Positions 15,001-56,457 of a stretch of 64,000 nt of DNA are shown here, piece by piece. The translations under genes and the position numbers were made by a program. The notes beneath the pieces were generated by a model that was not told where the DNA came from, made no database searches, and saw only the letters and a program-made list of their open reading frames with translations. Position 1 is the stretch's first letter. Each line of letters starts with the position of its first letter. This DNA comes from Candidatus Nomurabacteria bacterium. Its GTDB lineage: Bacteria > Patescibacteriota > Minisyncoccia > Phycocordibacterales > UBA918. The stretch covers positions 776,930 to 840,929 of the forward strand of contig CP060228.1 of assembly GCA_023898565.1 (NCBI GenBank). Reading direction: 5' to 3'.

Positions 15001-18000
15001 TAAACGTTGGTCAGTTTGCATTGCGTCCGGCAGCGCTGTCAGTTGCAGACACCGTTGCTGATATGGATTTGTATCAGAACCGCGTGATTGTGCGCCACGA
15101 AGACATTAGCCCGCTTTCAATTGCTGATATGGCAATCTTTGATAACGATGACGCATTTGATCTACCATTTACCGCAACAATTGGAGCAACTGATTTGCTC
15201 ACGGTGCTTCCGGGAAGTGGACTGTTTGTGTGGTCAAACCGTACGTTTGCACCGGCGGGTGAAGTGATTCTGGCTGGTAGTGGTGCAACTGCAGCAGATG
15301 GGTCGCTCACTATTGGTGCCGGAGCAACGCTGCAAGCAAACGCAGCAGACGGTGTCACTATTGGTGGTTCACTACATCTTGCTTCTGGAGCAGTTTTCCA
15401 AGGAGCGACAAGTTTAATTGACTTCACGGCTACCAACGGCGGACAGACCATCACTTCAGCTGCTAGTTCCACTATTACGCTGCACGATGTTTCATTTACT
15501 GGCGTAGGCGGTGCATGGGCGGTGCAGACACCGCTAGTGTCTGAGACTGATATCCTTGTCTCCACGGGTACTGTTTCTGGCGTGGCAAACATTACTGTGA
15601 ATGACGGCTCGTTCTACGGCGACGGTACTGTTTCTCTGACTGGCGGTACAGCATTGCTCAAGAAAACTAATACTCTTGGGGGAGCTCGCGCGTGGACATT
15701 TAATAATCTTACGCTTGGTAGTGGTGGCGTGGCAGGCGTGACTACTCCGGCTTCATCAGCTACGACGACAGTACGAGGTGTACTCACGATTGCTTCAGCG
15801 CACTTCCTTGACGCGCTTGGTTCAACGTTTGATTTGCAAGGAAGCGGCAATGTGCTCGTTGAGAGTGGTACGCTGCTTGAGGGAACCAGTACCTTCCGCT
15901 ATAGCGGTCTGACACCAAATATTCTCCGCACTCCGTATTACAACCTTAAGATTGATACTGACAGTGGCCTCAGTGTTACCGCAAACGCACCAACGGTTGG
16001 TCTGCAGATTTTGGGCAACTTGACGGTGGGTGCAAGCGGCACATCAACGCTAAACGTGAACACCAATGACCCAGCTTTGGCTGTAACCAACAACGTTTAT
16101 ATTGGTACTAAAGGAACAGTCCTCGGTAGCAACTCCGCACTCTTTAGCGTTGCTGGCAGTTGGGACAATGATGGTGTCTTTACTGCAAATGGCGGATCGG
16201 TAGAGTTTGTGAAGACTGGCGGATCGGCAACTATCGCGGCAGGGAATTCGAGTTTTGGTACCGTCAGTATTGCAGGCACCGCGTCATACACTATGAGCGA
16301 GAGTGCTACTACAACCGGAAATCTAACGCTCAGCACCGGTTCATTCACATTGGCCGGCGGCTCAACGCTCGCGGTTGGTGGTATTTTCTCCAGCCAAATG
16401 AGTGATGCAGCTACCACATGGGCGGGCACAACGCTCAGTCTCTATGGCGGTCAGTCATACAACATCAATGCTAAGAATCGTTCTGAAACCTTTGACACAG
16501 TCGTTGTGTCAGGCAGTACACATCCTCGCGTATGGAACGCAACATCATCAGCTGTTGTTACTACCAGCGGTAGCTCACTTTACTCACGAAATCATTTGGG
16601 CGTGATTGGCGATCTATATATTTTTGGCGACTATGTAAATAGCAGCTTCGCTGATTACTGGAGTTATGCTGAAGATTTCGATGGAGCAGTGCTTGGCTCA
16701 CCTCGTACTGCCAATGTTTTGGTTGAAGACAATGGTTCTGTTTTATACACTGGCGGATCGCTTACTGTTGAGGGCGATGCAAGCGCATCAACCACTATTG
16801 CTTCACAGACCGGTGGTACCTATGACTTTACTATTGGCGGCTCCACTGATGTGTTGCTTGACCACTACGTAGTACGAGACACTACGAGCGCAGGTTTGGT
16901 GTTTACTGGTGTGCCAAGTGTGACAGATATTTCAAATGGCGATTTTGAAGTTGCGATTGCTGATGGAACAGCGATGACAGTGGGTGGAACAGTCATTAGT
17001 GCCAATCAGGCGATGAACTTTACCGGCATCCGTTTTGCTACAACTACAGCCATCAATGCATACAACGTAACTGCAACTGGTACGAGCGCAAGTGCATGGC
17101 GCTTTGTGAATGTAATTGGAAACCTTGATGGTGAAGCGAAGGATATAGATCCGGCAGGAGACCCAGGCTATGTTGTGTGGGAAGATTCAGCCGCGATTAT
17201 CAATATCTCAGGTACGGTCTACAGTGATGAAGGTGCCACGCCGATGGGCATCACTGTCTGTGACGGAATCACGAAGAGTATTGAACTAAGTATCGCTGGA
17301 CTCACATTCGCGTCTACCACTTGTGGAATTGGTACAGGTGCGTACACCTTCACTGGTATCAGCTATGGTCTTAGCGATACGCTTACGGTGTACATCAATG
17401 GTGAGGCTGAAAAGGCAGTGACTGTCACACAGGATCCTGTGTCATCTATCAGCGGTCTTGATTTGTATCAAAATCGCGTGATCGTGCGTCATCAGAGTGG
17501 CGCGCCACTTACTATTGCTGACATGGCGGCGTGGGATAGTGATGACGATCCTGATGTGCTCTTTGATGCAGAAACAACTGGCACTGATACGCTTGTATTA
17601 CCAGCTGACACCAAGCTAATCGTGTGGACTGGTCGTACGTTTGCGCCAAATGGTGACGTGACCGTTTCGGGCGGTGGCGCGGGCGCTTCATTTGATGGCA
17701 CGCTTGAGCTCCAGACTGGCGCAACGTTTACCGCTGCAAATGGTGAAACGCATACCATCGGTGGTAGCTTGATTGCGGGTGCTGGTGCACTCTTTACTCC
17801 AGCGCAGTCATCAATCGTGTTCACTACCGATGATGCCGGTCGGACTATCGATACAAATAACGCTGGTTTTTACAACCTTTCACTTACTGGAAGCGGCGAC
17901 TGGACAGTGACCGACACAACCCTTACGGTCGCTAATGATTATCTGCAAAATGCTGGAGCGGTAACACTGCCGACAGCTACCACAACGATTGGTGGTGCAA

Positions 18001-21000
18001 TGACTGTTTCTGGCGGTACGTTTGATGCCAATGGAGGACTCCTCTATTTCACTGCTGCCGACGCCGGCAACAATGTTTCATTTGGGGGATCAGATGTGGC
18101 AACAGTCCGCTTCAATGGCGCAGGTGGTTCGTGGATCATGAGTGATACTAATGCTACCGCCACTGACTCATTCACCGTTAGCGCAGGTACTGTAACACTG
18201 CCGACAGGTAATTTGGTAGTCGGTTCAGATTTTGTGGTAACCGGGGCAGTAAATCACTCAAATGGCACCGTTGTCTTGACCGCGTCTGATGCCGGCAATC
18301 TCATTACGCTTTCAGGTAGTAGCTTGTACAGCTTGGACCTTACTGGTACGGGGGACTACACCATGACAGACGCTAGCGCCGCTGCGCTCGGTAGTGTCAT
18401 TGTGACTAATGGTGAGTTGATTGCGCCGTCAGCAACCCTTTCGATCGGCGGCTCATTTGATGCAACTGGCGGCGTGTTTACGCACAGTTCAGGCACCGTT
18501 CTCTTCAACTCAGCTGATACTGGAGAATTTGTCGATCCGGGTGCAAATGATTTCTACAATGTCATCTTTGGTAGCGCTGCTGGTGGTTGGACGCTCTTTA
18601 GTGCAACAACGACTCGAAATTTTGCTCTCTCTAGTGCAAACAGCTTCACGCTAGCTTCTGGTGAAAGTCTGACGGTCGAAGGAGTGTTTTCAAACGCAGT
18701 TGGTGGCACGGCTACGACATGGGCAAATACACAGCTCATTCTAAACAGCGGTACTGAGTATGAAATCGGTGCCAAGACCGTGGCGACAGAGTTGTATGAA
18801 AACCTTCAGATTGGAGCAAACACAGACGTAAGCATGTGGAATTCAAGTGCCGTCGCAGTCACTGTTTCTCCGACTGGTTCTCTCTATTCACAAGATCATG
18901 CAGCGGTTAACGGTAGCTTGTACATTTACGGTGATTACCATGTGGCAACTACCACTGAGTACTGGAGCTACGCGACTGACTTTGATGGTGCTGCGCTTGG
19001 CGGTTCGCCGCGAGCGGCAACTGTTGCAATCTCCAGTGGTTCAACAGTGCACGTTGACGGCGGAGTCCTTCGTTTGCTTGGAAATGCTGCCGGAACTACG
19101 ACCGTGTCCAATCAAGGATCAGGTACGTTTGATTTCAAGGTAAAGAACGGCACCTTCAATGCAAGCTCTTATTCGTTCCGCAATCTGTCGGCGCTCGGCT
19201 TACAGTTTACTGGTAACGCGAGTGTACCGTCGCTCAGTTATGGAGACTTTGAGCAAGCGGCTGACAGTACGGTGTTGATTAGCTTGGCATCTACAACACT
19301 AAACGCCAATGCCTCTTTGCTCGTCACAAATACTCGCTTTGCTACTGGTGGCTTTGTAAGCGGTGCAAACGTTTCACTCGACGCCACAACTACCAATAGC
19401 TGGCGCTTCACTGGCGCCACTGGCAATCTCTGGGGTGAGGCGTTCGATGTTGACGGCTCTGATGATTGTAGTTCGGTGCGTTGGGACGACAGCCAGTGTT
19501 TGCTCACTGAGCAATCAGCCTACCGCTGGCGTAATGATGATGGTGGAGAAGGAGCGCCGGCCGGTACTTGGTTTGATTCCAGCTGGACAGATCGAAAGCG
19601 CATCCGAGTCGTAAATGATGACGCCAGCTCGTATGCCGACGTTGCTGTGAAGGTTCCGGTTGATTTTGAGGCTAATATGCAGACAAGCTTTGATGACCTT
19701 CGCTTCACTGATGCGAGCGGTACAACGACACTTTCGTACTGGATTGAAACATACAATACAGGTAGTGATGCGCTCGTGTGGGTAAAGGTACCTAGCTTAG
19801 CTGCTGCAGCCGTAACTGAAATCTATATGTATTACGGTAATGGTGCCGCATCATCACTGAGCGACCCAAGCAACGTGTTTACTGTAGCCGAAGACTTCGA
19901 AGACAATAATATTACTGAGTATTCTGGTGACATTACAAAGTTTGCTACTGCCGGTACCTATGCCTACGGTGGTGGTTATGGTCTTGATGCGTCACCAAAT
20001 CAGAGCGCAAAAGCAACTGACGGCATTGCTCGAACTGACCTCACCGTTGCACAAGGACAAATCATTCGCTACATGCAATACGTCGACACGACCGCGGGTA
20101 GTGGTGATGAAGTGTGTACACTCTTTGCGGTGCAGAGCCCGGTCACCGCAAATCAAAACTACGCCGTGTGTCTGGAGCAGTTTGGTACTGATCGTGTATC
20201 TTTGGTTAAAAATGCAGAAAACACAGACTCTACTGGTACTCTGCTTTCTTCAAAGAACATGACACTGAGCACGGGTTGGTATGAAGTGATGATTGATTGG
20301 CAGACCAATAACGATATCGACGTGTCTGTTTTCAACAGCTCGGGCGCCCTGCAGGCTACCACTTCAGCTACAGATAGTACGTACTCTTCTGGAGGTATCG
20401 GCTTCACGTTCTGGTTCCAGCACGGTGGCTGGGATAGCTACGTGTCATGGCCGCGCACTGCAACGCAGCCAACTGTGTACGTGGGTGCTGAACAGCAGCA
20501 AGGGGGTGCAACCTGGGCAGCGCCACAAGATACGTCAGTTGGCGGCTTTAACTTCGGTGAAACAGCACGCTTGCGCGTTGGTATCAATAACACGGGGCTA
20601 CCAATTGAAAGTCAACAATTCCGTCTAGAATTTGCGCCAAAACTAACTGCACCTAGTTGTGAAGCGGTATCTGGGGGATCATTTACTGCAGTACCAGTAG
20701 CTGCAAGTTGCGGTAGCTCGGCGGTGTGTATGGCTGCTTCCGCCAGTACCACCAACGCTGATCCAACCACTGATCATTTGGTGATTGACGCAGGCAACTT
20801 CCTGCCTGGTGAAATGGTGGTTGAGACAAGTAATCAATCAACTCCATTTGACGTTGACCAAAACCGTTACACCGAGCTTGAGTACGCAATTGCCCTCACA
20901 ATAAACGCAACGAGTGATTCGTACTGCTTCCGTGTTACCGACGGCGGCTCAGCGCTTGACTCATACGCCATCATGCCAGAACTTACCCTGGCGTTTGACC

Positions 21001-21773
21001 CACAGCTTGGCAGTATCAATCTTAATGACGGAGCAGATATCGTGCTTACTCCGGGAACGACGACTACTATCATGGCGTCTACTACGGTCACTGACTACAA
21101 CGGATATGGCGATTTGTTTGCGGCCACGACAACCTTCTACAAGAGCACTGTCTCAGCTGCTTGTACACCAGACAATAACAATTGTTACGTAGCTAGCGGT
21201 GCAGCTTGTTCGTTTACGAACTGTTCTGGCGCTACCTGTACGCTCACCTGTAGCGCGGATTTTGAATTCCATGCTGATGCGACCGATAATGACGGTGGGC
21301 AATTCTGGTATGCTTTTATGGAGGTCTCTGATCAGGGTGGTGCAACTGACTTTGACACATCACTTGGTGTGGACGTACTGACTATTCGTGCGCTCGAGGT
21401 TTTGAATAGCATCAACTATGGTTCAATTGGTATTAACGAAAATACTGGTACCTATAACCCGACAGTGACTATTGAAAACTTTGGAAACGAAGCGATTGAC
21501 GTGCAAGTAGCGGGAACCAGTATGACTGATGGTGCCGCTTCTACCATTCCTGCCTCACAGCAACGCTTCGCTACTTCAACGTTTGATTACGATGTGTGTA
21601 CTGAGTGTCAGACGCTTTCAGAATTGGGCACCAATCTAGAAGTTGATCTCTCAAAACCAACCACGACAACACCAGCAACTACGGATGAGATTTATTGGGG
21701 CATTGAAGTGCCGTTTGGTATCGCAAGTAACCCGCACAACGGCGTAAACACCTTCACGGCGATTTCAGATTAA
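1..21773 (+). CDS. Giant secreted/surface protein (>7,250 aa), 5'-truncated at the window edge. It contains repeated DUF2341-like and LamG units, FN3 domains, CarboxypepD_reg-like domains, beta-helix-like repeats and a conserved C-terminal domain
   Basis: The open frame runs 21.7 kb without a stop and continues upstream of nt 1. The motif 'NFPVYVDLS...DG.DIRVT..DG.TELP.E...ID....TGELHF' recurs, and LamG-type 'LDELRFATTTRS' follows each copy. 'YWWRVRA.DP.G' indicates FN3 domains. G/T/S-rich repeats resemble a parallel beta-helix. Coding status is near certain; the domain names are recalled from memory and not verified by search. Confidence 0.9.
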   Translation, partial: AEDDFALQTYFPKGVGEVKSLEVFNQNKERDAVIPEYHPYVYHCEAGWEYAGEFAPGTLQDLSKQLSVELPTMPSAPGDASSTSSSTSDAVSEIPTEAVATSSSFDEVVDAEATDLSTSSVLDILPEPTPAPLFQMSLLAGTNTSEVATSTELRASSAEDDFLTAGYACRESGLVRQCDELDGGNTSCRVNRVKVADHETIQYAPGWDAVATNDGVMPKPNMLRRLAQFVGFGPDRKDVPDEFEVRQHSADTYHIRPGETMYFKMELAFPAFSEGEYWIEAVGDSEYGLLDPFWSSDWSYRMPITIDNTNGTTDLTEYQVFLELDNSLTDFWTNVQSDGSDIRFAQQLSVNNFSNAGTAKNNWFDTSFGGRVPVTIPPLTVTSDQQNFPVYVDLSLFDAGFWSAVKTDGGDIRVTTSDGTELPIDVVEIDTTAETGELHFLADTLAANAANTFYVYYDKPSASGYAASDPFGSEAVWSGAGYQAVYHFSDDPTTIGNTLTDETGNGNNLIVTTSAQATTTGQMGTAYDFNGSAGYLSASSWTFDGGDPLVTTGLYKMSSSDNSAIWQWGTGAQPDDIEFRPWYTGADTNGSGLHYFGATGGATYSFARATSSWHAFGTIGTTSASDNNLVYEDGVLVETVAQTVGNPTNTDGNGFSVGRTGTNGWWDGLLDELRIATTTRTEDRVKWETVNLSEPTHFYAVSSSQVPDNAANLNWYSTSWERRAKFTIPQGKVESNLTDFPVYVDLAMFGPDFFAAVQNDGADIRVTTGDGVTELPIELVAIDTGAKTGELYFKTDLYRNAANDFYVYYQNEDAIAYARTNTYGSNNVWTNGYLAVYHLEEDMAGVSNLNVYQDSTANQYHGDDYNTSNDKTGLFGKGQEFGDDQNDYLSLPNTVLDGVGDLTTSWWMSTVNGGAQGIVSGAMDNTGAGANEYIVWFNSSTNFQIYYQNAAESFGLSDTITNIDTGNWNYFVSTAEDAIDEVNFYVNGVGDTENPDPQPIAPLTIANGGLVVGQEQDALGGGFQTTQNFEGQLDELRFADVVRDADWVATEYANMGDVTTFIATTTAEELNITDFVELDFWLQHFDSTADEADIWLQVADLPAGEETVIYMYYGATGASSASDELATFSYSTSTDLYYVVDNSGATSISVQSLIDNNQVSIDGGAPVILHQGERTTFGTFTAASVISALGPISGTVTGSGNDGGDTIVPVSFASTTMVVPTNRANESWYLYSPFASTTVRSYIANSGTANQTINIATSSAATITTNPGTNQGVVFESTSPVLLTQRSNTPGDGVVAYPPTLRDLYGVYSNTIYISTVTDNPNPLVTCSGGGSGTVSGITRGEAQSETVCSNGSEGAGNAVRYRSQTYPIVAIQQADSDGNESTVFWPQHEFGTRYYMTNDSAYAAIVCSPRFGDVNLEVHDTVGGLVESATCSPAGNNPGKAYFTNGTGNGDSINFTAGHEIISTNGKPFYVIYEDVAVDQDEKNILGSVQGRKFDGAADRAITFGAEEPATTITYDDNHEQLSYAWYENTTSQTPTVRWPIGPTEDAEEGVAISGSGAVDEGDVLRLRLNLAVSSATTTAQSSAFSLQYAAAAGVGQCSAAAGWTDIGGVGSTTALFSGHDNAVLEDGTTLASTTLSQTTVAGTYEERNYSDFNPYEIGVGEVAEWDWALEVGAVDINTTYCFRMIRATGEELTTYTAYPELITVGPPNVPTNLTYFDNEHTTDLTPVLEFVAVDLAGDDIQYQVQVDDDPAFASIDIDRNSTDHFLNFENVTNPPDKAPFTSGDLIRFTSPTGLASSTTYWWRVRASDPDGSATTSDWSTPTSFTTNQNLETSEWFQTTGAQFDTNSLSSLTTAAGSVSVSGILGTMVGTSVDFDDAVVGNAWAEVDWNDTETSGEIRVQVEYKNGGSWQLIPDSLIPSNSTGISTAPINLRELDTDTYNELRLVATFDGSTLSLQDWTIRWGLRVETPVLGDLFDNQKTVDTLPIFDFISSDPQGDDLEYEISFSTDKTFVTGSSTYNSGSDAGFANLSNGGDTTPFTSGDTVTYTTQPGSPFTNGVTYWWRARAKDPNGDDSWSPWSQPDSFTVDTGLSVSTWFQTTRGQFEEGELTGTIATTSGSVVVNDLVGEYGKTTVTNGTWTTVNLQSEYNTPVVVASGRYTPLGDTQRSIRVRNKTTTSFEVLADNFDSSVGGTTVVDYLVMEAGVWNIDDGGTGTQVIAGTYEDVSDVQANTYAAAGYGADVTFSPAFSSPPAVIATVSSDNDSTWVTAHLNDGNTRNNPPTASAMGLYLGRGFESAVHDPEDIDYIAFETGHGVNNGAEFDADFSTDNHDEPPVSAEAFTSAFSSAPQVVIVMQAAEQGGNGGYAGLYAATPPTTSNYYPFIDEDGTGADRNHTTEPVLTLAFEDVSGVLKRYAGPGLSGTIAGENIIFSDGAGPKYDNFSWNDSTPGGSDILYQIEYEVSPGVYALVPNTAIPGNSAGTSTSPIDLTSVDINTYPVIRPFATLTCSGGTCPQINDWQLEWSEGVNMSGTLKEYDRLTGVATGTIRVAVDGSIIPSTGTVSGGIWSVANVTAFAGEIVTVWVDGATESEEAVAAFVYDGTGDITGVELFEQHLSISADEEAVVTNALLGQNDNLALGDEDIFYNVDGSNNLVVCSAGSCSDANIYVGPGNTYTPASAGGVSVSTHDVINDGFLELDTNTINVSGSWTNNATTSVDTSTINLTAATGTESVYSGENPMQFYNLSFGSGAGEALFTLAAGLDLAGSLTVASGTLDRSDYAISIAGNLTTGTGGFWQGTGTTTFDGAGAKTWRDDNLLTQKVGDVLIDGASTNVTALTNVAAYDITIGANDRLNGTSGKVIYVAGDWINNGTFTAQSSRVEIIEDDRTYPPAVPGSQNWYSDSAFDKRIMIAVNPAEVSADLVNFPLYVDLSTLGTNFWSAVASNGRDIRVTSGDGQTELPHDLVSINTTAKTGELHFLADAVDSATTTYFFVYFDNPAASAYYPTDTYGSQAVWAEYEAVYHFSDSSVAVDSYALDATANERHLLIEGAALATSTGRLGQGINLIGSTGILRNAGFTWTAGNPLVTSGWYKMPASSNESLWQWGTGASPDNLEFRPWYNTTGGLHYFGVTSGATYTLTPRDTVNWLHFTTVGATTTGQDNLVYQNAIEVERVTQTVANPYNDAATGLQVGRNGTGGSLQAQIDEFRITTSPRSAGWVQAEYSNQKTPKIFYATTSVQTYTPDLVLDEATHNIKMGGSTFYDLTIDDATTSAAFIDTAVTVSRNFVVVNGDVTLPTTRLTVGGSFTNTGYFQHNNAEVRFTSNSPASITLNGTEFYNSFYNVTFSGNGTFTFLDTNATTTNDMSITKGTVVFPSGKLTIGGHLSVTGTGIFNANNGTVEFISEDNESITTRGSSFNNVVFGVNEGGDGWYSADWSERAAIRVASTSVAGYIANFPVYVDLSMLGASFWGGVATDGRDIRVTSADGKTELPVEIAEISYGAQTGELHFLAPALSPISDTTFYIYFDNTDATEPDAASQYGSEAVWAEYEAVYHFNGDPVEGVADVSGNGRDLAPTVGTPSTTAGVLGTALDTTSSNVMLEDADWTWTAGEDLVSSGLYFMTGFDTGALWEFGSSCATDDCLAFMPWYDNATRGYHRFGETSGNDYNFTRDNSKWHHFTTNGRATNGEAVRIFEDGILRGSYLQTGTGENPSQTGLQIGRYVTNTYMDIDIDELRFATTTRSQQWIVTEYNNLTDVDTFYSTSTESYLDVVSSFTLNEALTDVHGDVTIYYADLVAPTNNFTIGGSALNVGGSYNPNNATTTFDSTDAGETVAFGDGAFYNLSFNGAGGGWTIATTTVLNNASLVTGADFTLAPNTTMSVAGTFQNSFNSAATTWTGSTLVLTGGDYTVTDRLDSGDTYAKLVVSGDSDLVMWNSSASTSTVLDTSSLYMPAFAGTPGLLRIYGAYERTAGTEHWSYDTDFDGTDLTGGGERPATVEIGRGSSIYLATSTTLSVQGAAGATTTVSAISGIYSLNVNAGTADIAYASFQNVGPKGLYLTNGTVLSSLTATEFSIAGGRSGITVDAATVNAQPSTEYTNVTFGTSSANSVYEPAWTDQVVITLQSSVIPGDLSNYPVYVDLSTLGSSFWSGVQSDGRDIRVTTDNGTKLPIDLVEIDASAQTGELHFLASSISSNNDTSFYIHFGNPAATAYAADDTYGANAVWTDYEAVYHFNEDPTVQITDMTGNGRNLYATVGTPATTTGLIGTALDTTASNVRLENVGWTWQAGDDLVSSGLYFMSGNDTGALWQFGTGNGADNGTYLSFMPWYNTATRGYNRFGVTSGSDYDFARNSTIWHHFTTNGRATAGESIDIYEDNLLQDSVTQLGSSENPTNTGLRIGAYQSTTYMDIDVDELRFSTDPRSIDWIDVEYRNFTDPTSLYATSTALTDSFNVSVIGVPTTFWLFSAGTGNRYGEAFDNDDGDPGSIQWDDSNFSITISGVVYNDDGTTPATAPLCNASTEVVTVVLDGVDTYTAACDPRDGSFEVTGIVYTGEPEIVTYISSSAATPQTNVAIYDETTGTGTVSGGVMTVARPNVIDGSVLVLIAGKDDDPTIMAAGGWTQIDVLGNTTGDQIDTGAWYRVVADAGTEAATYDFPADNGEGYSYWMGTLINVDTSTPIDVASTWSKLQNQYDPAAPSITTVTDGALVLGAWYTYRDTEMITPVYGWSDRGKNIVGPETNNLSVSSKSMLTQGATGAATTSGIISSRETHVAQFAFRPASAPTATSSIVAAAVTKTPLGNTGLPYDTITLRDQTSAYGTAAAAANIVVTRPEIENGDVMVLIVGKEDDFNITPPAGWVLGDERIEATGNDMYTAIWYRVVGNAGAEPSTYDFVNNDTTTEEYSYWIGSFSGVDTNNVFDVTPAWSNLQNDSSPAAPAVTTASDGAYVLATWYVIDDGAMDMPGSPWITLAQDVVTNNRLLAVAGRYMATNGNTGAAVMTGGSTDDVNVGQFALRPAALSVADTVADMDLYQNRVIVRHEDISPLSIADMAIFDNDDAFDLPFTATIGATDLLTVLPGSGLFVWSNRTFAPAGEVILAGSGATAADGSLTIGAGATLQANAADGVTIGGSLHLASGAVFQGATSLIDFTATNGGQTITSAASSTITLHDVSFTGVGGAWAVQTPLVSETDILVSTGTVSGVANITVNDGSFYGDGTVSLTGGTALLKKTNTLGGARAWTFNNLTLGSGGVAGVTTPASSATTTVRGVLTIASAHFLDALGSTFDLQGSGNVLVESGTLLEGTSTFRYSGLTPNILRTPYYNLKIDTDSGLSVTANAPTVGLQILGNLTVGASGTSTLNVNTNDPALAVTNNVYIGTKGTVLGSNSALFSVAGSWDNDGVFTANGGSVEFVKTGGSATIAAGNSSFGTVSIAGTASYTMSESATTTGNLTLSTGSFTLAGGSTLAVGGIFSSQMSDAATTWAGTTLSLYGGQSYNINAKNRSETFDTVVVSGSTHPRVWNATSSAVVTTSGSSLYSRNHLGVIGDLYIFGDYVNSSFADYWSYAEDFDGAVLGSPRTANVLVEDNGSVLYTGGSLTVEGDASASTTIASQTGGTYDFTIGGSTDVLLDHYVVRDTTSAGLVFTGVPSVTDISNGDFEVAIADGTAMTVGGTVISANQAMNFTGIRFATTTAINAYNVTATGTSASAWRFVNVIGNLDGEAKDIDPAGDPGYVVWEDSAAIINISGTVYSDEGATPMGITVCDGITKSIELSIAGLTFASTTCGIGTGAYTFTGISYGLSDTLTVYINGEAEKAVTVTQDPVSSISGLDLYQNRVIVRHQSGAPLTIADMAAWDSDDDPDVLFDAETTGTDTLVLPADTKLIVWTGRTFAPNGDVTVSGGGAGASFDGTLELQTGATFTAANGETHTIGGSLIAGAGALFTPAQSSIVFTTDDAGRTIDTNNAGFYNLSLTGSGDWTVTDTTLTVANDYLQNAGAVTLPTATTTIGGAMTVSGGTFDANGGLLYFTAADAGNNVSFGGSDVATVRFNGAGGSWIMSDTNATATDSFTVSAGTVTLPTGNLVVGSDFVVTGAVNHSNGTVVLTASDAGNLITLSGSSLYSLDLTGTGDYTMTDASAAALGSVIVTNGELIAPSATLSIGGSFDATGGVFTHSSGTVLFNSADTGEFVDPGANDFYNVIFGSAAGGWTLFSATTTRNFALSSANSFTLASGESLTVEGVFSNAVGGTATTWANTQLILNSGTEYEIGAKTVATELYENLQIGANTDVSMWNSSAVAVTVSPTGSLYSQDHAAVNGSLYIYGDYHVATTTEYWSYATDFDGAALGGSPRAATVAISSGSTVHVDGGVLRLLGNAAGTTTVSNQGSGTFDFKVKNGTFNASSYSFRNLSALGLQFTGNASVPSLSYGDFEQAADSTVLISLASTTLNANASLLVTNTRFATGGFVSGANVSLDATTTNSWRFTGATGNLWGEAFDVDGSDDCSSVRWDDSQCLLTEQSAYRWRNDDGGEGAPAGTWFDSSWTDRKRIRVVNDDASSYADVAVKVPVDFEANMQTSFDDLRFTDASGTTTLSYWIETYNTGSDALVWVKVPSLAAAAVTEIYMYYGNGAASSLSDPSNVFTVAEDFEDNNITEYSGDITKFATAGTYAYGGGYGLDASPNQSAKATDGIARTDLTVAQGQIIRYMQYVDTTAGSGDEVCTLFAVQSPVTANQNYAVCLEQFGTDRVSLVKNAENTDSTGTLLSSKNMTLSTGWYEVMIDWQTNNDIDVSVFNSSGALQATTSATDSTYSSGGIGFTFWFQHGGWDSYVSWPRTATQPTVYVGAEQQQGGATWAAPQDTSVGGFNFGETARLRVGINNTGLPIESQQFRLEFAPKLTAPSCEAVSGGSFTAVPVAASCGSSAVCMAASASTTNADPTTDHLVIDAGNFLPGEMVVETSNQSTPFDVDQNRYTELEYAIALTINATSDSYCFRVTDGGSALDSYAIMPELTLAFDPQLGSINLNDGADIVLTPGTTTTIMASTTVTDYNGYGDLFAATTTFYKSTVSAACTPDNNNCYVASGAACSFTNCSGATCTLTCSADFEFHADATDNDGGQFWYAFMEVSDQGGATDFDTSLGVDVLTIRALEVLNSINYGSIGINENTGTYNPTVTIENFGNEAIDVQVAGTSMTDGAASTIPASQQRFATSTFDYDVCTECQTLSELGTNLEVDLSKPTTTTPATTDEIYWGIEVPFGIASNPHNGVNTFTAISD
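8770..13290 (+). repeat. Three tandem intragenic repeat units of about 1.6 to 2.0 kb (DUF2341-like plus LamG-like) inside the giant gene, with near-identical DNA stretches
   Basis: Units begin at about 8770, 10357 and 12390 (NFPLYVDLSTLG / NFPVYVDLSMLG / NYPVYVDLSTLG). The DNA around 9030 and 10615 is nearly identical ('gctgtctgggcggagtatgaagcggtgtatcacttta'). Confidence 0.8.
15062..17850 (+). repeat. Dispersed intragenic duplicate of about 400 nt ('DLYQNRVIVRH...RTFAP.G.V') at about 15062-15460 and about 17458-17850
   Basis: The peptide blocks DMDLYQNRVIVRHEDISPLSIADMA and GLDLYQNRVIVRHQSGAPLTIADMA are colinear for about 130 aa. Confidence 0.7.
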
Positions 21774-21777
21774 TCTT

Positions 21778-23349
21778 ATGGCTGTGAATTTCCAAAAAGA
21801 AAAGGTAATGCATGATAGACTACTACGTATGAAACGAGCTCTTTCGGTCGTACTTTTCACAGCACTGCTTGCTACGTTCTTGCCTGTAGGCGTGTACGCT
21901 GCAGATCAGTCAGCTCCAAATATTTCTGGTGTGGAAGTAACTGATGTAACCGAAACCAGTGTCACGGTTACCTGGGAGACCGACGAAAATGCTGACTCAG
22001 CAGTAAACTATGGCCTCCAACCCGACTACGGTATCGTTCGTGTGCCGGTGGCTGATCGCACGACTCACTCTATTACGCTTGATAACCTTGAGCCTGGTCG
22101 TGTGTATTACTTCAGAGTAGTCTCAGCTGATGACAGTGGCAATCAAGGCATTTCAGCGGATTACCGCGTACAGACTTCGGGCACACCACAGACCGGTGAT
22201 GGTCAGTCGTCCTCAGATGGGCAGGGAACAGCTGCCGGTGATGGAAGTAGTTCGCAAACAGAGACGACCACCACCTCACAGACGCAGAGTCAGACAACCC
22301 AAGAAATTATTGAGCAAATTAACGAAATCACTAACCCCGAGCAGTTACAGGAAATTCTTAACGAAACCGTGAAGGCAATTGAGGGTATTACGGAGGATCT
22401 CACTATTGTGGGTCCGCCAACGGTAATCCCAGAAACAACCACTGCCATAGTAAAATGGACAACAGACCGTGAAGCAACGTCAAAAGTGCTCTTTTCAGCA
22501 ACTCGTGGCTTTGACGGAGTAAATTATGCGTATGCCCAAGAGTCAACCGCTGGCGATACTACCGAACATGAAGTACAGCTCATCGGTCTCACTGCTTTCA
22601 CTGATTATAGTTTCAAAGTGGTCTCTACTGATACGTTCGGTATTACTGGTGAAAGTCGTAATTACACCTTCCAGACCAAAGCAACAATGCCTGAGATTCG
22701 AAACTTGCGCGTGGTCAAGGTGGAAGAAAACTCAGCTACGCTGGCCTGGGACACAAATGTTCCAACCAAGGCGTTGGTTGAATATCAAGACCAAACCACT
22801 GGTGAACAACAGTCTGTCGGCCGTCCAACGCTAGCAACAACGCACCAGATGCGTTTGTCAGACCTTACGCTGGGTACTAGATACGTAGCCTTTGTGACTG
22901 CGGAAAACTCTGGTGGTGATCGCGTACGTAGTCAGCCAATTCAGTTCATTACCGTCCGAGACATTGCACCACCGATTATTACCAACGTGACTAATGAATC
23001 AACGTTATTCCCCGGGGGTGAGTCACGCATTCAGACGATTGTTGAATGGGATACCGACGAGCCAGCGTCGTGTCTTATGACATACCAGGAAGGTGTGGCT
23101 GGCGGTACTGATGCATATACGATTGAGAAAGAGCAAGTTGAGTATAAGACAAGCCATGTTGAAGTAGTAGTAGATTTTGCCCCGGCTACGGTGTATCAGT
23201 TTTACCTTGATTGTGTTGACGAAGCGGGGAATGACATTCGGTCAGAAAACTTTGTGCTGTTTACGCCAATTCAAGAAAAGAACATCATTGACTTGATTCT
23301 CGAAAACTTTGAATCAACCTTTGGATGGGTCAAAAATATCGGTGGCTAG
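21778..23349 (+). CDS. Secreted protein with four fibronectin type III (purple-acid-phosphatase N-terminal-like) domains. An alternative start at 21808 is possible
   Basis: The signal peptide is 'ALSVVLFTALLATFLPVGVYA'. FN3 blocks such as 'VTVTWETDENADSAVNYG...YYFRVVSADDSGN' repeat. Confidence 0.75.
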   Translation: MAVNFQKEKVMHDRLLRMKRALSVVLFTALLATFLPVGVYAADQSAPNISGVEVTDVTETSVTVTWETDENADSAVNYGLQPDYGIVRVPVADRTTHSITLDNLEPGRVYYFRVVSADDSGNQGISADYRVQTSGTPQTGDGQSSSDGQGTAAGDGSSSQTETTTTSQTQSQTTQEIIEQINEITNPEQLQEILNETVKAIEGITEDLTIVGPPTVIPETTTAIVKWTTDREATSKVLFSATRGFDGVNYAYAQESTAGDTTEHEVQLIGLTAFTDYSFKVVSTDTFGITGESRNYTFQTKATMPEIRNLRVVKVEENSATLAWDTNVPTKALVEYQDQTTGEQQSVGRPTLATTHQMRLSDLTLGTRYVAFVTAENSGGDRVRSQPIQFITVRDIAPPIITNVTNESTLFPGGESRIQTIVEWDTDEPASCLMTYQEGVAGGTDAYTIEKEQVEYKTSHVEVVVDFAPATVYQFYLDCVDEAGNDIRSENFVLFTPIQEKNIIDLILENFESTFGWVKNIGG

Positions 23350-23350
23350 A

Positions 23351-23382
23351 AAGAGTTGGGGATACCCCAACTCTTTCTTTTG
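23351..23382 (+). terminator. Rho-independent terminator after the FN3 gene
   Basis: A perfect hairpin AAAGAGTTGGGG-ATA-CCCCAACTCTTT is followed by CTTTTG. Confidence 0.7.
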
Positions 23383-23405
23383 CCGAAGAGTGCCATAATA
23401 GTGCT

Positions 23406-24728
23406 ATGGCAAAACCGCTCATTGTAGCTCGGGATCTTTCGATTATTTACAATCAGGGTAAATCGAATGAATTTAAAGCCCTGCAAGGGGTGAATACTGA
23501 CATCTACGAAGGTGAGTACATTATTTTGTTCGGTCCGTCAGGCTGTGGAAAATCTACACTCATGTACTCCATTCAAGGTTCTTTACCGCCAGGTGAGGGA
23601 ACGCTTCTTATCAAGGGTGATGACGTGTATGCGTATCCGCCTGCAGAGCGCGTGTATTTTCAGCGCCACGTGATGGGTATTATTTTTCAGCAATTCAACC
23701 TCATCATGTCACTATCAGTGCTTGATAACGTGGCTCTGCCAATGATTTTTTGCGATGCCGATAAAGCAACGAGAGAACGACGTGCCCAGGCTCTGCTTGA
23801 TCGTTTTGGGGTAGGACATGTTTCCCATAAGCTGCCCATGATGCTCTCTGGAGGACAGCAGCAGCGTGTGTCAGTAGCGCGGTCAATGGTTAACGACCCT
23901 AAAATTCTTTTGGCTGACGAGCCAACGGGAAACCTCGACTCGGTTTCTACGCAACAGGTGATGGATAAAATTGACGAAATTAACACGTTTGATCGCCGAA
24001 CGATTATCATGGTGTCACATAATGCGGCGCATCTTAGTTATGCGCACCGTGTGTACTATCTAAAAGATGGTTGGATTTTACGCGAGGTCGTCAATCCGCA
24101 ACGAAAGCAAATCAAGCCTGTAAATGAGGGAGAGACAATTGTAACTGAGCTTGAGCAGCTTGCCCGTTTGTATCCGTACGATTCGGTGGAGACATGGCGC
24201 GTTAAAAGTATGGTTAATTTTTTAACCCAACAATATACATTTGATCAGCTTGGCAAGCTTGAGCGTGCAATCAATTTCTTCATCCAAGGCAAAATTGACC
24301 GGGACGCTTTCATAAAGGCTCTCATGATGCCGCTTGAGCGAGGAGGAGTCGAGATTTCGGAAAAAGAAGCACGTCACATGGCTGGCGTGGTGGCAAAGAT
24401 GATGGATCAGGCAGCCGACGTGCGAAGGTTTAGAGCGAGAAAAGAAAATGACAACGTGTTCTTTAGTCAGCATAAGCTTGCAGAGCGTCTAAAGGAACAT
24501 TTATTGCACCAGTATCATATTAAGCTTACCAAAGAACAAGATACCAACATGACCGAGCTCATTGCTGACCGTGTGACGGGCGTAATCGAGGAACCTGCTA
24601 TGAACGAACGAATGTTGCAAGGTATTCGAGCTGGCGGACTCGGCCTGTCTGAGCGTGAAGCCGATGATCTTACTCGATACTTTGAAAAAGTCATCGCTCA
24701 AGGCGTTGATGTAGACTATAAGAAATAA
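23406..24728 (+). CDS. ABC transporter ATP-binding protein (MacB/LolD/FtsE-like) with a C-terminal extension of about 215 aa and unknown function
   Basis: It has Walker A 'GPSGCGKST', signature 'LSGGQQQRVSVARSM' and Walker B 'LLADEPTGNLD'. The start at 23406 is preferred because the upstream ATG at 23325 lies before the terminator hairpin. Confidence 0.85.
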   Translation: MAKPLIVARDLSIIYNQGKSNEFKALQGVNTDIYEGEYIILFGPSGCGKSTLMYSIQGSLPPGEGTLLIKGDDVYAYPPAERVYFQRHVMGIIFQQFNLIMSLSVLDNVALPMIFCDADKATRERRAQALLDRFGVGHVSHKLPMMLSGGQQQRVSVARSMVNDPKILLADEPTGNLDSVSTQQVMDKIDEINTFDRRTIIMVSHNAAHLSYAHRVYYLKDGWILREVVNPQRKQIKPVNEGETIVTELEQLARLYPYDSVETWRVKSMVNFLTQQYTFDQLGKLERAINFFIQGKIDRDAFIKALMMPLERGGVEISEKEARHMAGVVAKMMDQAADVRRFRARKENDNVFFSQHKLAERLKEHLLHQYHIKLTKEQDTNMTELIADRVTGVIEEPAMNERMLQGIRAGGLGLSEREADDLTRYFEKVIAQGVDVDYKK

Positions 24729-24730
24729 TT

Positions 24731-25945
24731 ATGCGTGTACAAGATCTTGCATCACTCTCCACTCGAATGTTTAAAACGAACCCAATGCGTACGTGGTTGA
24801 CGATTCTTGGTATGGGAGTAGGGACCGGAGCCGTGGTAGTTTTGGTGGGACTCGGTTTCGGTTTGCAGCAAATTATTTTGGAGCAAATTGTGTTCGGTGA
24901 AACGCTGCTTTCGCTCGGTGTTTCCTCTACCGGAGCACAAGGCCTACGTCTTACGCCAGAAACAGTAACGAGCTTTGAAAATATGACTGAAGTGCTTGAC
25001 GCTGCGCCGCTGGCACGTTTTCCGGCACTTATTACCTTTAAGGGTCTTACCGGCAACGTTTTCGTGCAAGGAGTCGAACCACCATATTTGCGCTACGCTG
25101 GTGTGACCGCACAAGCTGGCACGGTGTTTACTGATGAAGATGCTGGAGACGCTAATTCAATCATGATTTCACCAGCAACCCTTAAGTTGTTTGGTGTGGC
25201 TGATGACGAGATGGATAGTTTTATTGGCCAAAAAGTTTCTATTCGTCTTCTGGTGCCTGCAAATGATGGAACGGACAACGTAAACGAAATTCTGATTGAT
25301 AAAGAGTACACCGTGAGAGGCATCACCAAAGAGGAGGCTGTTTTGAACGTCATGATGATGTTGCCAGAATTGCGTAATCACGTCGGTATTGAAGAGTACG
25401 AGCGCATACAGGTGCGTGTGGATACGAATGAAAATCTGCCAATCGTAGAAGAACGCTTGATTGAAGAGGGGTATAGAGTGTCAGCTCTCTCCAAGACAGT
25501 GGAGCAGGCGTCAAAAATCTTCCAGGGTATCCAGGTGGTACTTGCCACGTTCGGAGGTATTGCCCTCGTTGTGTCTGCTATTGGTATGTTCAACACGATG
25601 ACCGTTACTTTGCTCGAGCGTACTAAAGAAATTGGAATCATGCGTACTATCGGTGCCTCGCCTAATGATGTGAAATATCTCTTCGTGTCGGAGTCTATTG
25701 TGGTAGGTTTTCTCGGCGGTCTTAGCGGTATTTTGATGGGGGTCGTTCTGGGGGTGACGGTGAATGTTTTCCTCAATATTGTGGCTGGACAATTTGGTGG
25801 CCAGTCGGTAAGGCTGTTCTCATTCCCACTGGACTTTTTGAGCTTTATTGCACTTTTTTCTGCGGCTGTAGGATACTTGACCGGTATTTTCCCAGCCAGC
25901 CGTGCATCAAAACTAAACCCGCTTGATGCAATCAGATATGAGTAG
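24731..25945 (+). CDS. ABC transporter permease of the FtsX/MacB family (N-terminal TM, large extracytoplasmic domain, C-terminal FtsX 3-TM bundle)
   Basis: The C-terminal motif is 'ERTKEIGIMRTIGASPNDVKYLF...'. It lies 2 nt downstream of the ATPase stop. Confidence 0.85.
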   Translation: MRVQDLASLSTRMFKTNPMRTWLTILGMGVGTGAVVVLVGLGFGLQQIILEQIVFGETLLSLGVSSTGAQGLRLTPETVTSFENMTEVLDAAPLARFPALITFKGLTGNVFVQGVEPPYLRYAGVTAQAGTVFTDEDAGDANSIMISPATLKLFGVADDEMDSFIGQKVSIRLLVPANDGTDNVNEILIDKEYTVRGITKEEAVLNVMMMLPELRNHVGIEEYERIQVRVDTNENLPIVEERLIEEGYRVSALSKTVEQASKIFQGIQVVLATFGGIALVVSAIGMFNTMTVTLLERTKEIGIMRTIGASPNDVKYLFVSESIVVGFLGGLSGILMGVVLGVTVNVFLNIVAGQFGGQSVRLFSFPLDFLSFIALFSAAVGYLTGIFPASRASKLNPLDAIRYE

Positions 25946-27964: not shown

Positions 27965-28005
27965 AGCAACAGCCACTGTTATCCAGCAGTGGCTGTTGCT
28001 TTTTA
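27965..28005 (+). terminator. Rho-independent terminator
   Basis: The 13-bp perfect stem GCAACAGCCACTG / CAGTGGCTGTTGC has loop TTATCCAG and is followed by TTTTT. Confidence 0.8.
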
Positions 28006-28037
28006 GGTACTTTTTATCGATAATATGTAGCATACAC

Positions 28038-56413: not shown

Positions 56414-56457
56414 CATGCAACGCACGAGCCTGACGCGAGCTCGTGTATACTTTACAT

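Follow-up and report, generated by a model that had tools for sequence, protein, structure and literature searches.

A type VII ABC transporter of Patescibacteria with a duplicated helical extension on its ATPase and a conserved FN3-repeat neighbour

The window (64,000 nucleotides of contig CP060228.1, Candidatus Nomurabacteria bacterium; the whole stretch that was analysed) encodes an ABC ATPase and a permease of MacB/FtsX fold, preceded by the gene for an FN3-repeat protein. The ATPase carries a 215-aa C-terminal extension (residues 226-440) that consists of a flexible linker followed by two tandem helical modules. We tentatively interpret these three genes as a Patescibacteria-specific module in which the transporter would act as a mechanotransducer on the C-terminal tail of the FN3 protein and the extension would serve as a control or docking domain. 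On the combination of a nucleotide-binding domain (NBD) with tandem helical modules, a MacB-type permease and a tail-bearing FN3 protein, all of which occur here, we propose a new family. A search of the literature on CPR giant proteins together with ABC, MacB or FtsX returned nothing describing the module.

Table 1. Features of the three-gene module, with positions in the window
Feature	Position	Strand	Basis or remark
FN3-repeat protein, 523 aa, Sec signal, directly upstream of the ATPase	21778..23349	+	Pfam fn3 and Pur_ac_phosph_N
C-terminal tail of the FN3 protein, FTPIQEKNIIDLILENFESTFGWVKNIGG	23260..23346	+	near-invariant, 72 loci
12-bp perfect hairpin AAAGAGTTGGGG-ATA-CCCCAACTCTTT, then CTTTTG	23350..23376	+	between FN3 stop and ATPase start
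ABC nucleotide-binding domain, aa 1-225 of the ATPase	23406..24080	+	Pfam ABC_tran, solved-chain matches
Extension linker and lead-in, aa 226-264	24081..24197	+	~20-aa disordered stretch, short helix, conserved YP motif
Helical module 1, aa 265-334, loop G313-G314 (ERGGVEISEKEA)	24198..24407	+	hhalign, pLDDT 85-96 in helices
Helical module 2, aa 358-431, loop G410-G411 (RAGGLGLSEREA)	24477..24698	+	hhalign, model, alignments
Permease, 404 aa, MacB/FtsX fold	24731..25945	+	Pfam MacB_PCD and FtsX, 4 TM

The ATPase gene occupies positions 23406-24728 and encodes 440 aa. The open reading frame as called spans 23325-24728, and ATG 23406 (MAKPLIV...) is taken as the true start because homologues P0101-P0109, whose N-termini are complete, start at this position. 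Walker A (GPSGCGKST, aa 43-51), the Q-loop (Q95), the signature (LSGGQQQR, aa 147-154), Walker B (ILLADEP, aa 167-173) and the H-loop (H205) were all read directly and are intact, which for both Walker motifs and the signature agrees with a previous sequence-only reading of this DNA. Pfam ABC_tran matches aa 26-174 (E 1e-32), and the solved chains closest to the NBD are 5xu1_A, MJ0796, BceA, YtrE, MacB and FtsE, with LolD also strong. Alignments of NBD type, to solved structures and NCBIfam models alike, stop at approximately aa 224-229; only the fused MacB and PsdA extend further, to aa 236-249. Median identity of the NBD is 90% (76 species). The ATPase stop codon (24726-24728) and the permease ATG (24731) are separated by 2 nt.

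Recoding or a split ATPase gene was considered for the recurring homologue lengths of 351, 295, 280, 255 and 172 aa, and was rejected. In alignment the short homologues are fragments beginning at internal Met codons, and the split genes on the long contigs L001 and L002 look like frameshift errors, with neighbouring genes broken too. The spacing between the NBD match and the extension match is 675 nt in the 76 species-genome loci, the same as in the window.

The permease matches Pfam MacB_PCD (aa 21-243, 64 bits; cut-off 27) and FtsX (aa 273-397, 60 bits; cut-off 25.5). Its hydrophobic segments (21-39, 263-281, 317-354 and 362-380) give four TM helices, with an extracytoplasmic domain of ~220 aa between TM1 and TM2, in agreement with the four-TM FtsX/MacB permease with a large extracytoplasmic domain described earlier. 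The solved chains closest to it are YtrF (9o9x_C, E 5.7e-31) and MacB (5gko_A, aligned over aa 13-402); for the pair as a whole, the closest solved relatives are YtrEF, MacB, Spr0694/5, LolF and LolC. By the domain content of both NBD and permease, the pair is classed as a type VII (MacB/FtsX-fold) ABC system.

Two well-known members of this class were rejected as identities for the pair. For a MacAB-TolC tripartite pump, there is no adaptor gene and the MacB equivalog reaches 164 bits where the cut-off is 966. A scan of the proteins between 21778 and 62889 (all listed open reading frames of at least 150 aa except 58764-60104) gave no HlyD/MFP-type domain, so that the missing membrane-fusion protein noted in the sequence-only reading holds over this range; nor were HlyD, Biotin_lipoyl_2 or OEP-type domains found in the scanned window proteins or in the called genes of L001, L002, L079 and L081-083. 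For LolCDE, LolD scores 167 bits (cut-off 307.75) and lolCE 84 bits (cut-off 362). To our knowledge, Patescibacteria lack an outer membrane, unlike the diderm hosts of LolCDE lipoprotein sorting.

The extended ATPase has a restricted distribution. An exhaustive family-profile search of 1.84 billion representatives recovered only 235 cluster representatives; nearly all full-length matches listed have the NBD-plus-extension architecture, and every family member with a name belongs to Patescibacteria. Gene order was compared in close loci, which comprise 76 species genomes collected with an alignment of nearer relatives and the two long contigs, and in divergent loci, for which a degenerate DNA pattern was written by hand. 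Practically all of the 76 species genomes with sufficient contig preserve the order giant protein, FN3 protein, ATPase, permease, p627, p332 and dockerin protein. The permease lies directly 3' of the extended ATPase in 75 of the 78 close loci and in every divergent locus whose contig continues past the ATPase, a branch in which identity of the extension is 17-26%. The FN3 gene is upstream of the ATPase in 73 of 78 related loci. Most divergent loci whose contig extends past the pair also have an FN3-rich neighbour of 1500-2300 aa (L079, L081, L082, L084-086, L089-091, L095, L097, L100, L102, L105, L107, L109 and L111); an adjacent FN3 gene is absent in L098, L104 and L106. The placement beside a giant adhesin and surface proteins, on which the sequence-only reading had remarked, is therefore not accidental. 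That reading had named a common known domain in the extension and random genomic contexts as findings that would speak against it, and neither was found.

This conserved synteny, together with the FN3 link in distant lineages, argues for a dedicated role in a surface apparatus and against a generic drug exporter, which had also been judged unlikely before. It is rather doubtful that the pair is an ordinary type VII exporter or detoxifier (of antimicrobial peptides, lipid-linked or glycolipid material, or a small secreted peptide) that happens to sit in a surface island, with the extension as a lineage-specific dimerising or trans-inhibition domain as in MalK, MetN and ModC. Although the best NCBIfam and PDB similarities include DarD, the TIGR03608 bacteriocin-export family, BceA, PsdA, MacB and Spr0694, the equivalog scores are all far under cut-off. 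That an NBD can carry a regulatory domain at its C-terminus is well established, and the flexible tether and repeated module of the extension would suit dimerisation beneath the NBDs, but no TOBE, NIL or CBS domain was detected after the NBD in the window protein or in 26 diverse extensions (E up to 1). The cluster has no biosynthetic or immunity genes, and synteny with FN3 and giant genes over 76 species and lineages of ~20% identity would be unusual for a generic pump.

FtsEX was likewise rejected as the identity of the pair: FtsE scores 170.5 bits against a cut-off of 264.85, the FtsX models reach 34-42 bits where the cut-offs are 225-255, and the ~220-aa extracytoplasmic domain is of MacB_PCD type rather than the small FtsX domain of about 100 aa. 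With FtsE/FtsX and LolD/LolCE scores this far below cut-off, the likeness to FtsEX or LolCDE proposed in the sequence-only reading stands for the general mechanism and does not extend to equivalence. An FtsEX-like regulator is improbable as well; its extracytoplasmic domain would activate a wall hydrolase encoded elsewhere, opening the wall for giant fibres, and the extension would tether the transporter to proteins of cell division or of the cytoskeleton, much as FtsE contacts FtsZ. The best NBD matches include FtsE, the system is monoderm-like and without a membrane-fusion protein, and a LytR_C-domain protein is encoded in the cluster (45151-46881). Against this, the extracytoplasmic domain has the size of those in MacB and LolC, the gene kept next to the pair encodes an FN3 protein, and the cluster encodes no peptidoglycan hydrolase or EnvC/PcsB-type coiled-coil activator; among the scanned proteins there are no amidase, peptidase, CHAP or coiled-coil activator genes. 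The suggestion that the pair controls cell-wall hydrolysis thus finds no partner gene in the cluster.

The two modules of the extension are ~70-75 aa each and both contain a GG-x-G-L loop. Family-profile hhalign aligns module 1 with module 2 over 70 columns (probability 99.4%, E 2.3e-21), and exactly two modules are present in 119 of the 148 representatives listed. The family loop signature is GG[VAIL]G[LF]..(R/Q)TA(K), and that of the module is LD.P...GG.GL..TA. The AlphaFold2 model of the extension is all-helical (mean pLDDT 82.7, pTM 0.75); pLDDT is below 50 over extension residues 1-19, followed by a helix at 23-30. The lead-in segment is near-invariant inside the Kaiserbacteria-like group and variable in length in the wider family, and a conserved C-terminus, QGVDVxYK, comes after module 2. 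The full-length model is no guide to where the extension lies with respect to the NBD dimer, as confidence in the NBD is low owing to an alignment that is shallow at the N-terminus. The extra region of about 215 aa, described earlier as helical and charged with no recognisable motif, is thus confirmed in length, helicity and charge (34 K+R and 35 D+E, net neutral in the window protein), whereas the last point gives way to an internal tandem duplication with a conserved loop. The extension is real and under constraint: all 76 species genomes have it in frame behind the NBD, and the family profile recovers 235 cluster representatives. Conservation in orthologous loci was one of the checks that the same reading had suggested.

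Another of these checks, a profile and structure search, matched no known domain. The extension has no Pfam or NCBIfam match, and comparison with PDB sequence profiles gave nothing significant: the best match, ribosomal bL20 (E 0.07, 88 columns), and the TAF4 TAFH domain (E 0.09) were treated as noise. When 26 diverse extensions were compared with Pfam at E up to 1, only scattered matches (ARGLU, Sigma54_CBD) and no consistent family were obtained. Foldseek matches were not meaningful against either PDB (best E 1, TM ~0.2) or BFVD (best E 0.6), with the whole extension as query, for which the relative orientation of the two modules may lower the scores. An HhH identity was rejected, as the conserved Ala lies two residues further from G-h-G than in the HhH consensus (h-x-x-h-x-G-h-G-x-x-x-A-x-x-h). 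It is very improbable that the extension binds nucleic acid or the ribosome, coupling the transporter to giant-protein translation or acting as a membrane-sequestered transcription regulator: bL20 is the best PDB profile match and the loop signature superficially resembles the G-h-G hairpin of HhH motifs, but the bL20-type E-values are not significant, both window loops are acid-flanked (GGVEISEKEA and GGLGLSEREADD) in a net neutral extension, and no HhH or ribosomal protein fold was returned by Foldseek.

The FN3 protein has a signal-like hydrophobic segment at aa 20-38 and a C-terminal tail that is almost invariant, compared to a median identity of 70% for the whole protein. FN3 proteins of close and distant lineages share the terminal peptide ...TP...NIIDLILENFESTFGWVKNI, and the motif is recognisable in all distant lineages, where the counterparts are 1500-2300 aa in length. 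The family pattern, ...TP....[IV][IV].[LI][IM][IL]..F[EQ]..F.[WF].K..., occurs once in the window, and 88 of its 89 occurrences lie at the very C-terminus. The helical hydrophobic moment of the tail is 0.37-0.52, a modest amphipathicity that is equalled by 9% of shuffles. A protein search with a profile of the tail gave 36 matches, all of them short fragments. We consider the FN3 protein, which the sequence-only reading had overlooked in this role, the likely client of the transporter, and its near-invariant terminal peptide a putative docking or recognition site for the permease.

Family membership and genomic context suggest that the pair works by mechanotransmission. In the mechanism that we tentatively favour, the module would have three components: a Sec-exported FN3-repeat stalk protein ending in a near-invariant amphipathic peptide, an ATPase composed of NBD, flexible linker and two tandem four-helix modules, and a type VII permease. 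The module would be a mechanotransducer and not a pump across the membrane: on the cytoplasmic side, ATP would be bound and hydrolysed to move the large extracytoplasmic domain of the permease, and this motion would grip, release or extract the FN3 tail. The module may thereby assemble, anchor or actuate the surrounding surface complex of giant, WxL-like and cohesin-dockerin proteins. As the only non-catalytic cytoplasmic element of the cluster, the extension would be a docking or regulatory platform that gates the ATPase in response to cytoplasmic signals.

The ATPase is the sole cytoplasmic protein of the cluster, as the other proteins encoded between 21778 and 47951 all have an N-terminal signal or TM segment. 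In L084, L090, L091, L094, L097 and L106, a stand-alone CheY-like receiver gene adjoins the start of the ATPase gene or overlaps it, a recurrent feature of relatives that the sequence-only reading had also overlooked. About four groups of these receivers can be distinguished, which are some 30-35% identical to one another. In L106 the order is response regulator, another gene, histidine kinase, response regulator, ATPase and permease, and in L056 two response regulators, a PAS-histidine kinase and a further response regulator are inserted between ATPase and permease. That the adjacent regulators are mostly stand-alone receivers without DNA-binding output suggests control of the ATPase, not of transcription, and in several lineages the gating signal may come from the receiver encoded immediately upstream, possibly by contact with the extension. 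In the Kaiserbacteria-like group of the window, a two-component gene lies within 10 kb of the pair in 1 of 78 loci; the nearest receiver and kinase in the window (55607-56413 and 58764-60104) are ~30 kb away.

A mechanotransmission mechanism is described for MacB-family (type VII) transporters such as MacB, LolCDE and FtsEX by Greene et al. 2018 (PMC5985334). The pair resembles these systems in its complete NBD motifs, in a four-TM permease with a large TM1-TM2 extracytoplasmic domain and MacB_PCD and FtsX domains, and in probably working on an extracytoplasmic client instead of passing a substrate across the bilayer. It differs from them in lacking partners of MacA/TolC type and in being an equivalog of neither FtsEX nor LolCDE, in the tandem helical domain on the NBD, which is absent from the best-matching solved NBDs, and in its conserved partner, an FN3 protein with a C-terminal peptide and not a lipoprotein, coiled-coil hydrolase activator or periplasmic adaptor. 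As far as we have found, no type VII system with an accessory domain dedicated to its NBD would have been described before, and, if the proposed mechanism is correct, the C-terminal peptide of an FN3 protein would be a new type of client for this class. The extension itself represents a domain family of 235 clusters that lacks annotation and for which a new model could be built.

Bacillus subtilis YtrBCDEF influences cell-wall thickness, competence and biofilm (PMC8060467). YtrEF (PDB 9o9x/9o9y) resembles the pair as a type VII system of a monoderm whose role concerns the envelope rather than efflux, and its subunits are the best solved permease match (YtrF) and a strong NBD match (YtrE, E 2e-40). 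The YtrF match is limited to the TM2-TM4 region (aa 225-404), and thus the extracytoplasmic domains are not detectably similar; moreover, YtrE (251 aa) has no extension, and the context of YtrEF is without FN3 or giant proteins. BceAB-BceRS is similar in that BceA is among the closest NBDs (E 3e-41) and histidine kinase and receiver genes are attached to the transporter in several relatives. BceB has 10 TM helices as opposed to the four of the permease described here, and no such regulators adjoin the pair in the window. MalK/TOBE, MetN/NIL and OpuAA/CBS also have an accessory, probably regulatory domain after the NBD in the same polypeptide, but those domains are mostly beta or alpha/beta and belong to importers, whereas the extension is all-alpha, duplicated, joined by a disordered linker and part of a type VII system, with no sequence similarity to them.

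The neighbouring genes resemble the WxL/Csc clusters of Firmicutes, a likeness based on motifs and one weak Pfam match: some neighbours have WxL-like C-termini (...DYTATLTYVATPVF; ...YWGIAVP...), and others are CscA/WxLIP-like, with a signal peptide, a C-terminal TM anchor and a weak WxLIP_PGBD match. We know of no WxL/Csc cluster with a dedicated ABC transporter, giant DUF2341/LamG proteins or cohesin-dockerin pairs.

Most Patescibacteria (CPR) live as episymbionts, and host attachment is thought to depend on giant surface proteins. The conserved module puts an ATP-driven MacB-type machine, with the only cytoplasmic domain of the cluster, beside the genes for such fibres; large proteins containing DUF2341 and FN3 have been named only as possible adhesins (PMC11809585). 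A bolder and rather unlikely extension of the favoured mechanism is that the module is a signal-controlled surface machine, in which the transporter would grip the invariant C-terminal helix at the membrane-proximal end of the FN3 stalk or giant fibre for the ATP-driven deployment, release or retraction of a host-attachment structure, and the extension would receive a cue from the cytoplasm, such as a phosphorylated CheY-like protein. If true, this would be an ABC-powered, two-component-gated adhesin actuator without a described counterpart.

The intergenic region between the FN3 and ATPase genes contains the hairpin listed in Table 1, with an RNA fold of -23.8 kcal/mol (z = -5.8). A strong hairpin (-15 kcal/mol or lower) is present in the equivalent region of 24 of 73 related loci, where its sequence is not conserved, and the window hairpin appears terminator- or attenuator-like.

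The transporter is encoded by two genes in the same direction. The ATPase start was placed at ATG 23406, inside the listed ORF 23325-24728, because nine N-terminally complete homologues start with MAKP(L/F/Y)I...; the stop codon (24726-24728) is followed after 2 nt by the permease ATG. The nucleotide-binding domain (NBD) motifs are intact, and four hydrophobic segments of the permease (residues 21-39, 263-281, 317-354 and 362-380) predict four transmembrane (TM) helices and an external domain of ~220 aa. NBD-only alignments (solved structures, NCBIfam models) stop at approximately residue 224-229 of the ATPase, leaving 215 residues (226-440) with no match in Pfam or NCBIfam. The sequence-only reading had described intact Walker A, signature and Walker B motifs, an extra C-terminal region of about 215 aa, a 4-TM FtsX/MacB permease with a large extracytoplasmic domain, and no membrane-fusion protein gene; all of this is borne out. 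No HlyD-type adaptor was found among the window proteins scanned.

Features of the transporter, its surface-protein cluster and related loci (nucleotide positions in the window, or residues where marked aa)
Feature	Position	Description	Median identity to window
Giant DUF2341/LamG protein	21..21773	C-terminus ...EIYWGIEVPFGIASNPHNGVNTFTAISD	51% (C-terminus)
FN3 protein	21778-23349	523 aa; tail ...FTPIQEKNIIDLILENFESTFGWVKNIGG	70%
FN3 tail, relative L079		...SPKPKENVVNLIINNVEDVFGFLKVN	
FN3 tail, relative L081		...TPRPRENILDLIIQNFEQTFEFLKHLRF	
FN3 tail, relative L082		...TPQQRRTIIQIMISQFEQTFGWIKRLGI	
Hairpin	23350-23376	perfect 12 bp, 3-nt loop, then CTTTTG	
ATPase	23406-24728	440 aa	
NBD	aa 1-225		90%
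ABC_tran	aa 26-174	Pfam, well above curated cut-off	
Walker A	aa 43-51	GPSGCGKST, intact	
Q-loop	aa 95	Q95, intact	
Signature	aa 147-154	LSGGQQQR, intact	
Walker B	aa 167-173	ILLADEP, intact	
H-loop	aa 205	H205, intact	
ATPase extension	aa 226-440		69%
Repeat copy 1	aa 265-334	internal repeat	
Repeat copy 2	aa 358-431	internal repeat	
Permease	24731-25945	404 aa	83%
MacB_PCD	aa 21-243	Pfam, well above curated cut-off	
FtsX	aa 273-397	Pfam, well above curated cut-off	
p627	26058-27941	C-terminus ...YTYWGIAVPVAITLAGNYQGLNTFTAVTAEAIDW	51%
p332	27996-28994	N-terminal signal, C-terminal TM anchor, then basic tail	
Dockerin and cohesin modules	28997-30103, 32744-34537, 35235-35978		
p385	30431-31588	C-terminus ...DDYTATLTYVATPVF	
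2063-aa protein	37992-44183	C-terminus ...GDYTADLQYIVIPVF	
Anchored protein	44196-45212	N-terminal signal, C-terminal TM anchor	
Anchored protein	45151-46881	N-terminal signal, C-terminal TM anchor	
Receiver protein	55607-56413	150-aa N-terminal part of no assigned family	
Big_13/TSP3 surface protein	56443-58767	774 aa	
Histidine kinase	58764-60104		

The extension is a genuine helical domain, conserved and duplicated internally. A word-indexed search returned 109 relatives of residues 226-440 (43-80% identity; the few named are Candidatus Kaiserbacteria), many of them fragments starting at internal Met codons; such starts are shared among the fragment homologues (lengths 351, 295, 280, 255 and 172 aa). 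An exhaustive search of 1.84 billion cluster representatives with an HMM of the extension profile recovered 235 proteins at E ≤1e-3 and 116 at E ≤1e-10. Among the 51 listed representatives that reach 400 aa, most have the extension beginning at ~residue 215, right behind the NBD, and the nine longest extension-bearing proteins have ABC_tran where scanned; the surplus length of long variants (545-775 aa) is a low-complexity tail, with no TM segments or additional domains. Divergent members with a source name are all Patescibacteria (e.g., Spechtbacteria, 'Patescibacteria group bacterium'). Alignment of 26 diverse extensions, 17-36% identical to the window protein, reveals the repeated pattern ...RLE..I...L.G.I....F...LD.P...GG.GL(Y/N)..TA...; the two copies match in profile-profile comparison with 99.4% probability (E 2.3e-21, 70 columns), and exactly two are present in 119/148 listed representatives. 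AlphaFold2 modelling of the extension alone (60 sequences; mean pLDDT 82.7, pTM 0.75) predicts ~20 disordered N-terminal residues, then nine helices: a short lead helix and two four-helix units. Searched with Foldseek, the PDB (best E 1, at TM ~0.2) and BFVD yielded nothing comparable to this model, and sequence profiles gave only marginal matches to PDB chains (bL20, E 0.07; TAF4-TAFH, E 0.09), so the profile and structure searches that the earlier reading had proposed identify no known domain.

The ATPase-permease pair belongs to a conserved surface-apparatus cluster. Scanning one genome for each GTDB species gave 76 close loci (extension identity 53-77%), with record titles of Paceibacteria, Kaiserbacteria, Parcubacteria, Patescibacteria or 'Saccharibacteria'. 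L030 and L048, labelled Saprospiraceae and Acidimicrobiales MAGs yet carrying the full Patescibacteria-type cluster, are probably mis-binned contigs. When window proteins were compared by tblastn with these loci and two long metagenomic contigs, the window's gene order (giant protein, FN3 protein, ATPase, permease, p627, p332, DUF4215/dockerin protein, p385, p394, cohesin protein) was kept nearly everywhere the contig reaches. Across the 76 species-genome loci, without exception, the NBD and extension matches keep the window's 675-nt spacing: the extension is conserved in orthologous loci. The pair's placement beside the giant-protein and surface genes is not random. In L056 and L067, and also in L062 and L070, extra genes lie between ATPase and permease; those of L067 (10658-13830, same strand) are a 196-aa ORF and an 861-aa Gly_rich_2/CARDB protein. 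The ATPase gene is called in two or three pieces in the two long JGI contigs (L001, 9191-10519; L002, 9520-10843), where neighbours are broken too; indel errors from long-read assembly, rather than pseudogenes, are the probable cause.

The partner conserved alongside the pair is the FN3 protein, with its C-terminal peptide. Three divergent members (P0255, P0258 and P0261) have extensions 18-26% identical to the window's; a MacB-type permease follows the ATPase in both contexts whose contig continues downstream, and an FN3/Pur_ac_phosph_N-repeat protein of 1533 to 2171 aa is near the pair in all three, abutting it in two and three small genes off in the third. The C-terminal ends of the window's FN3 protein and those of L079, L081 and L082 are alike (table), and this tail is almost invariant across 72 Kaiserbacteria-like loci. 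A regular expression for it matches once in the window and, over all loci, falls at the extreme C-terminus in 88/89 matches. A degenerate DNA pattern for LDxPxxxGGVGLNxRTA added 28 metagenomic loci from the divergent branch; in each whose contig runs on past the extended ATPase, the permease comes next. Directly upstream, L084-086, L089-091, L095, L097, L100, L102, L105, L109 and L111 have an FN3 protein with the tail; L107 has an FN3 protein downstream of the pair, and no adjacent FN3 protein is present in L098, L104 or L106. In L098 (1367-4329) the extended ATPase and permease adjoin a gene that is secY-like by sequence and ribosomal-protein-like genes. The most informative partners of the pair fall outside 23406-25945, the interval that the sequence-only reading had covered.

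The FN3 tail has a moderate helical hydrophobic moment (0.37-0.52, equalled by 9% of shuffles) and is too polar for a TM anchor. Since the protein carries a Sec-type signal, its tail is expected on the outer side of the membrane, where the sole transporter parts open to it are the permease external domain or outer-leaflet groove; we infer that it is a ligand of the permease. The hairpin, which sits right behind the FN3 stop codon and 30 nt ahead of the ATPase start, has a fold energy of -23.8 kcal/mol (z = -5.8), and strong hairpins, unrelated in sequence, occupy the equivalent place in 24/73 related loci; it may be a terminator or attenuator setting a high FN3-to-transporter expression ratio.

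The pair has the hallmarks of the MacB/FtsX-fold (type VII) family and lacks those of MacAB-TolC, FtsEX and LolCDE. We tentatively favour a type VII ABC mechanotransducer dedicated to a surface-fibre complex, in which ATP-driven motions of the permease external domain would hold, release or extract the FN3 tail and the tandem helical extension would serve for docking or control on the cytoplasmic side. The general idea of mechanotransmission rather than drug export, proposed earlier, is consistent with the evidence; its specific forms (control of cell-wall hydrolysis, Lol-like extraction) are conjectural. An ordinary exporter, its extension a dimerising regulatory domain, would fit the likeness to export pumps but not the deep synteny, and seems unlikely. 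Less likely still is an FtsEX-like hydrolase regulator: equivalog scores fall short, the domain size does not agree, and the window proteins scanned contained no peptidoglycan hydrolase domain. Binding of nucleic acid or ribosomes by the extension is very improbable: the spacing of its motif, the acidic residues flanking its loops, its neutral charge and the absence of supporting fold matches all speak against it.

The closest solved relatives of the pair (B. subtilis YtrEF, MacB and S. pneumoniae Spr0694/5) have no NBD appendage comparable to the extension. Large DUF2341/FN3 proteins of Patescibacteria are described as possible adhesins, with no transporter mentioned (PMC11809585), and the literature searched contained no account of an ATPase-extension/permease/FN3 module. 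As judged from sequence, the transporter belongs to a known class and brings with it a new family of accessory domain and a new conserved motif of its putative client.

Apart from the ATPase, all cluster proteins (21778-47951) have an N-terminal signal or TM segment; the NBD and extension are therefore the sole cytoplasmic parts of the system. Some loci of the divergent branch have a gene for a stand-alone CheY-like receiver (121-135 aa) immediately upstream of the ATPase or overlapping its start (L084, L090, L091, L094, L097 and L106), or one gene further away (L082 and L083). The ATPase-adjacent receivers retain the acidic pocket, phospho-acceptor Asp and conserved Lys, and form about four groups with only 30-35% identity between groups. 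The order in L106 is receiver, unassigned gene, membrane histidine kinase, receiver, ATPase, permease; in L079 a Crp-type regulator adjoins on the upstream side, with receiver and kinase genes 6-8 kb off. The association is weak in the window's own group (1/78 loci). The Kaiserbacteria-like L056 has a receiver, receiver, PAS histidine kinase, receiver block between ATPase and permease (7451-11694, opposite strand). With no output domain, such a receiver must act on another protein, and the extension is the only non-catalytic part of the only cytoplasmic protein; it is thus a candidate docking site, plausible from gene association, and phosphorelay input to the module is possible. The window has no two-component genes other than the receiver and histidine kinase that flank the Big_13/TSP3 surface protein, some 30 kb downstream of the transporter.

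C-terminal ends are common to two pairs of surface proteins, the giant protein with p627 and p385 with the 2063-aa protein. These ends have no Pfam match and look like WxL-type surface-attachment domains with Y/W variation. The three anchored proteins share the signal and TM-anchor architecture of CscA/WxL-interacting proteins, and only that at 45151-46881 matches WxLIP_PGBD (weakly), plus LytR_C. The dockerin and cohesin modules, with no glycoside hydrolases nearby, suggest that cohesin-dockerin pairing is used to assemble the surface complex.
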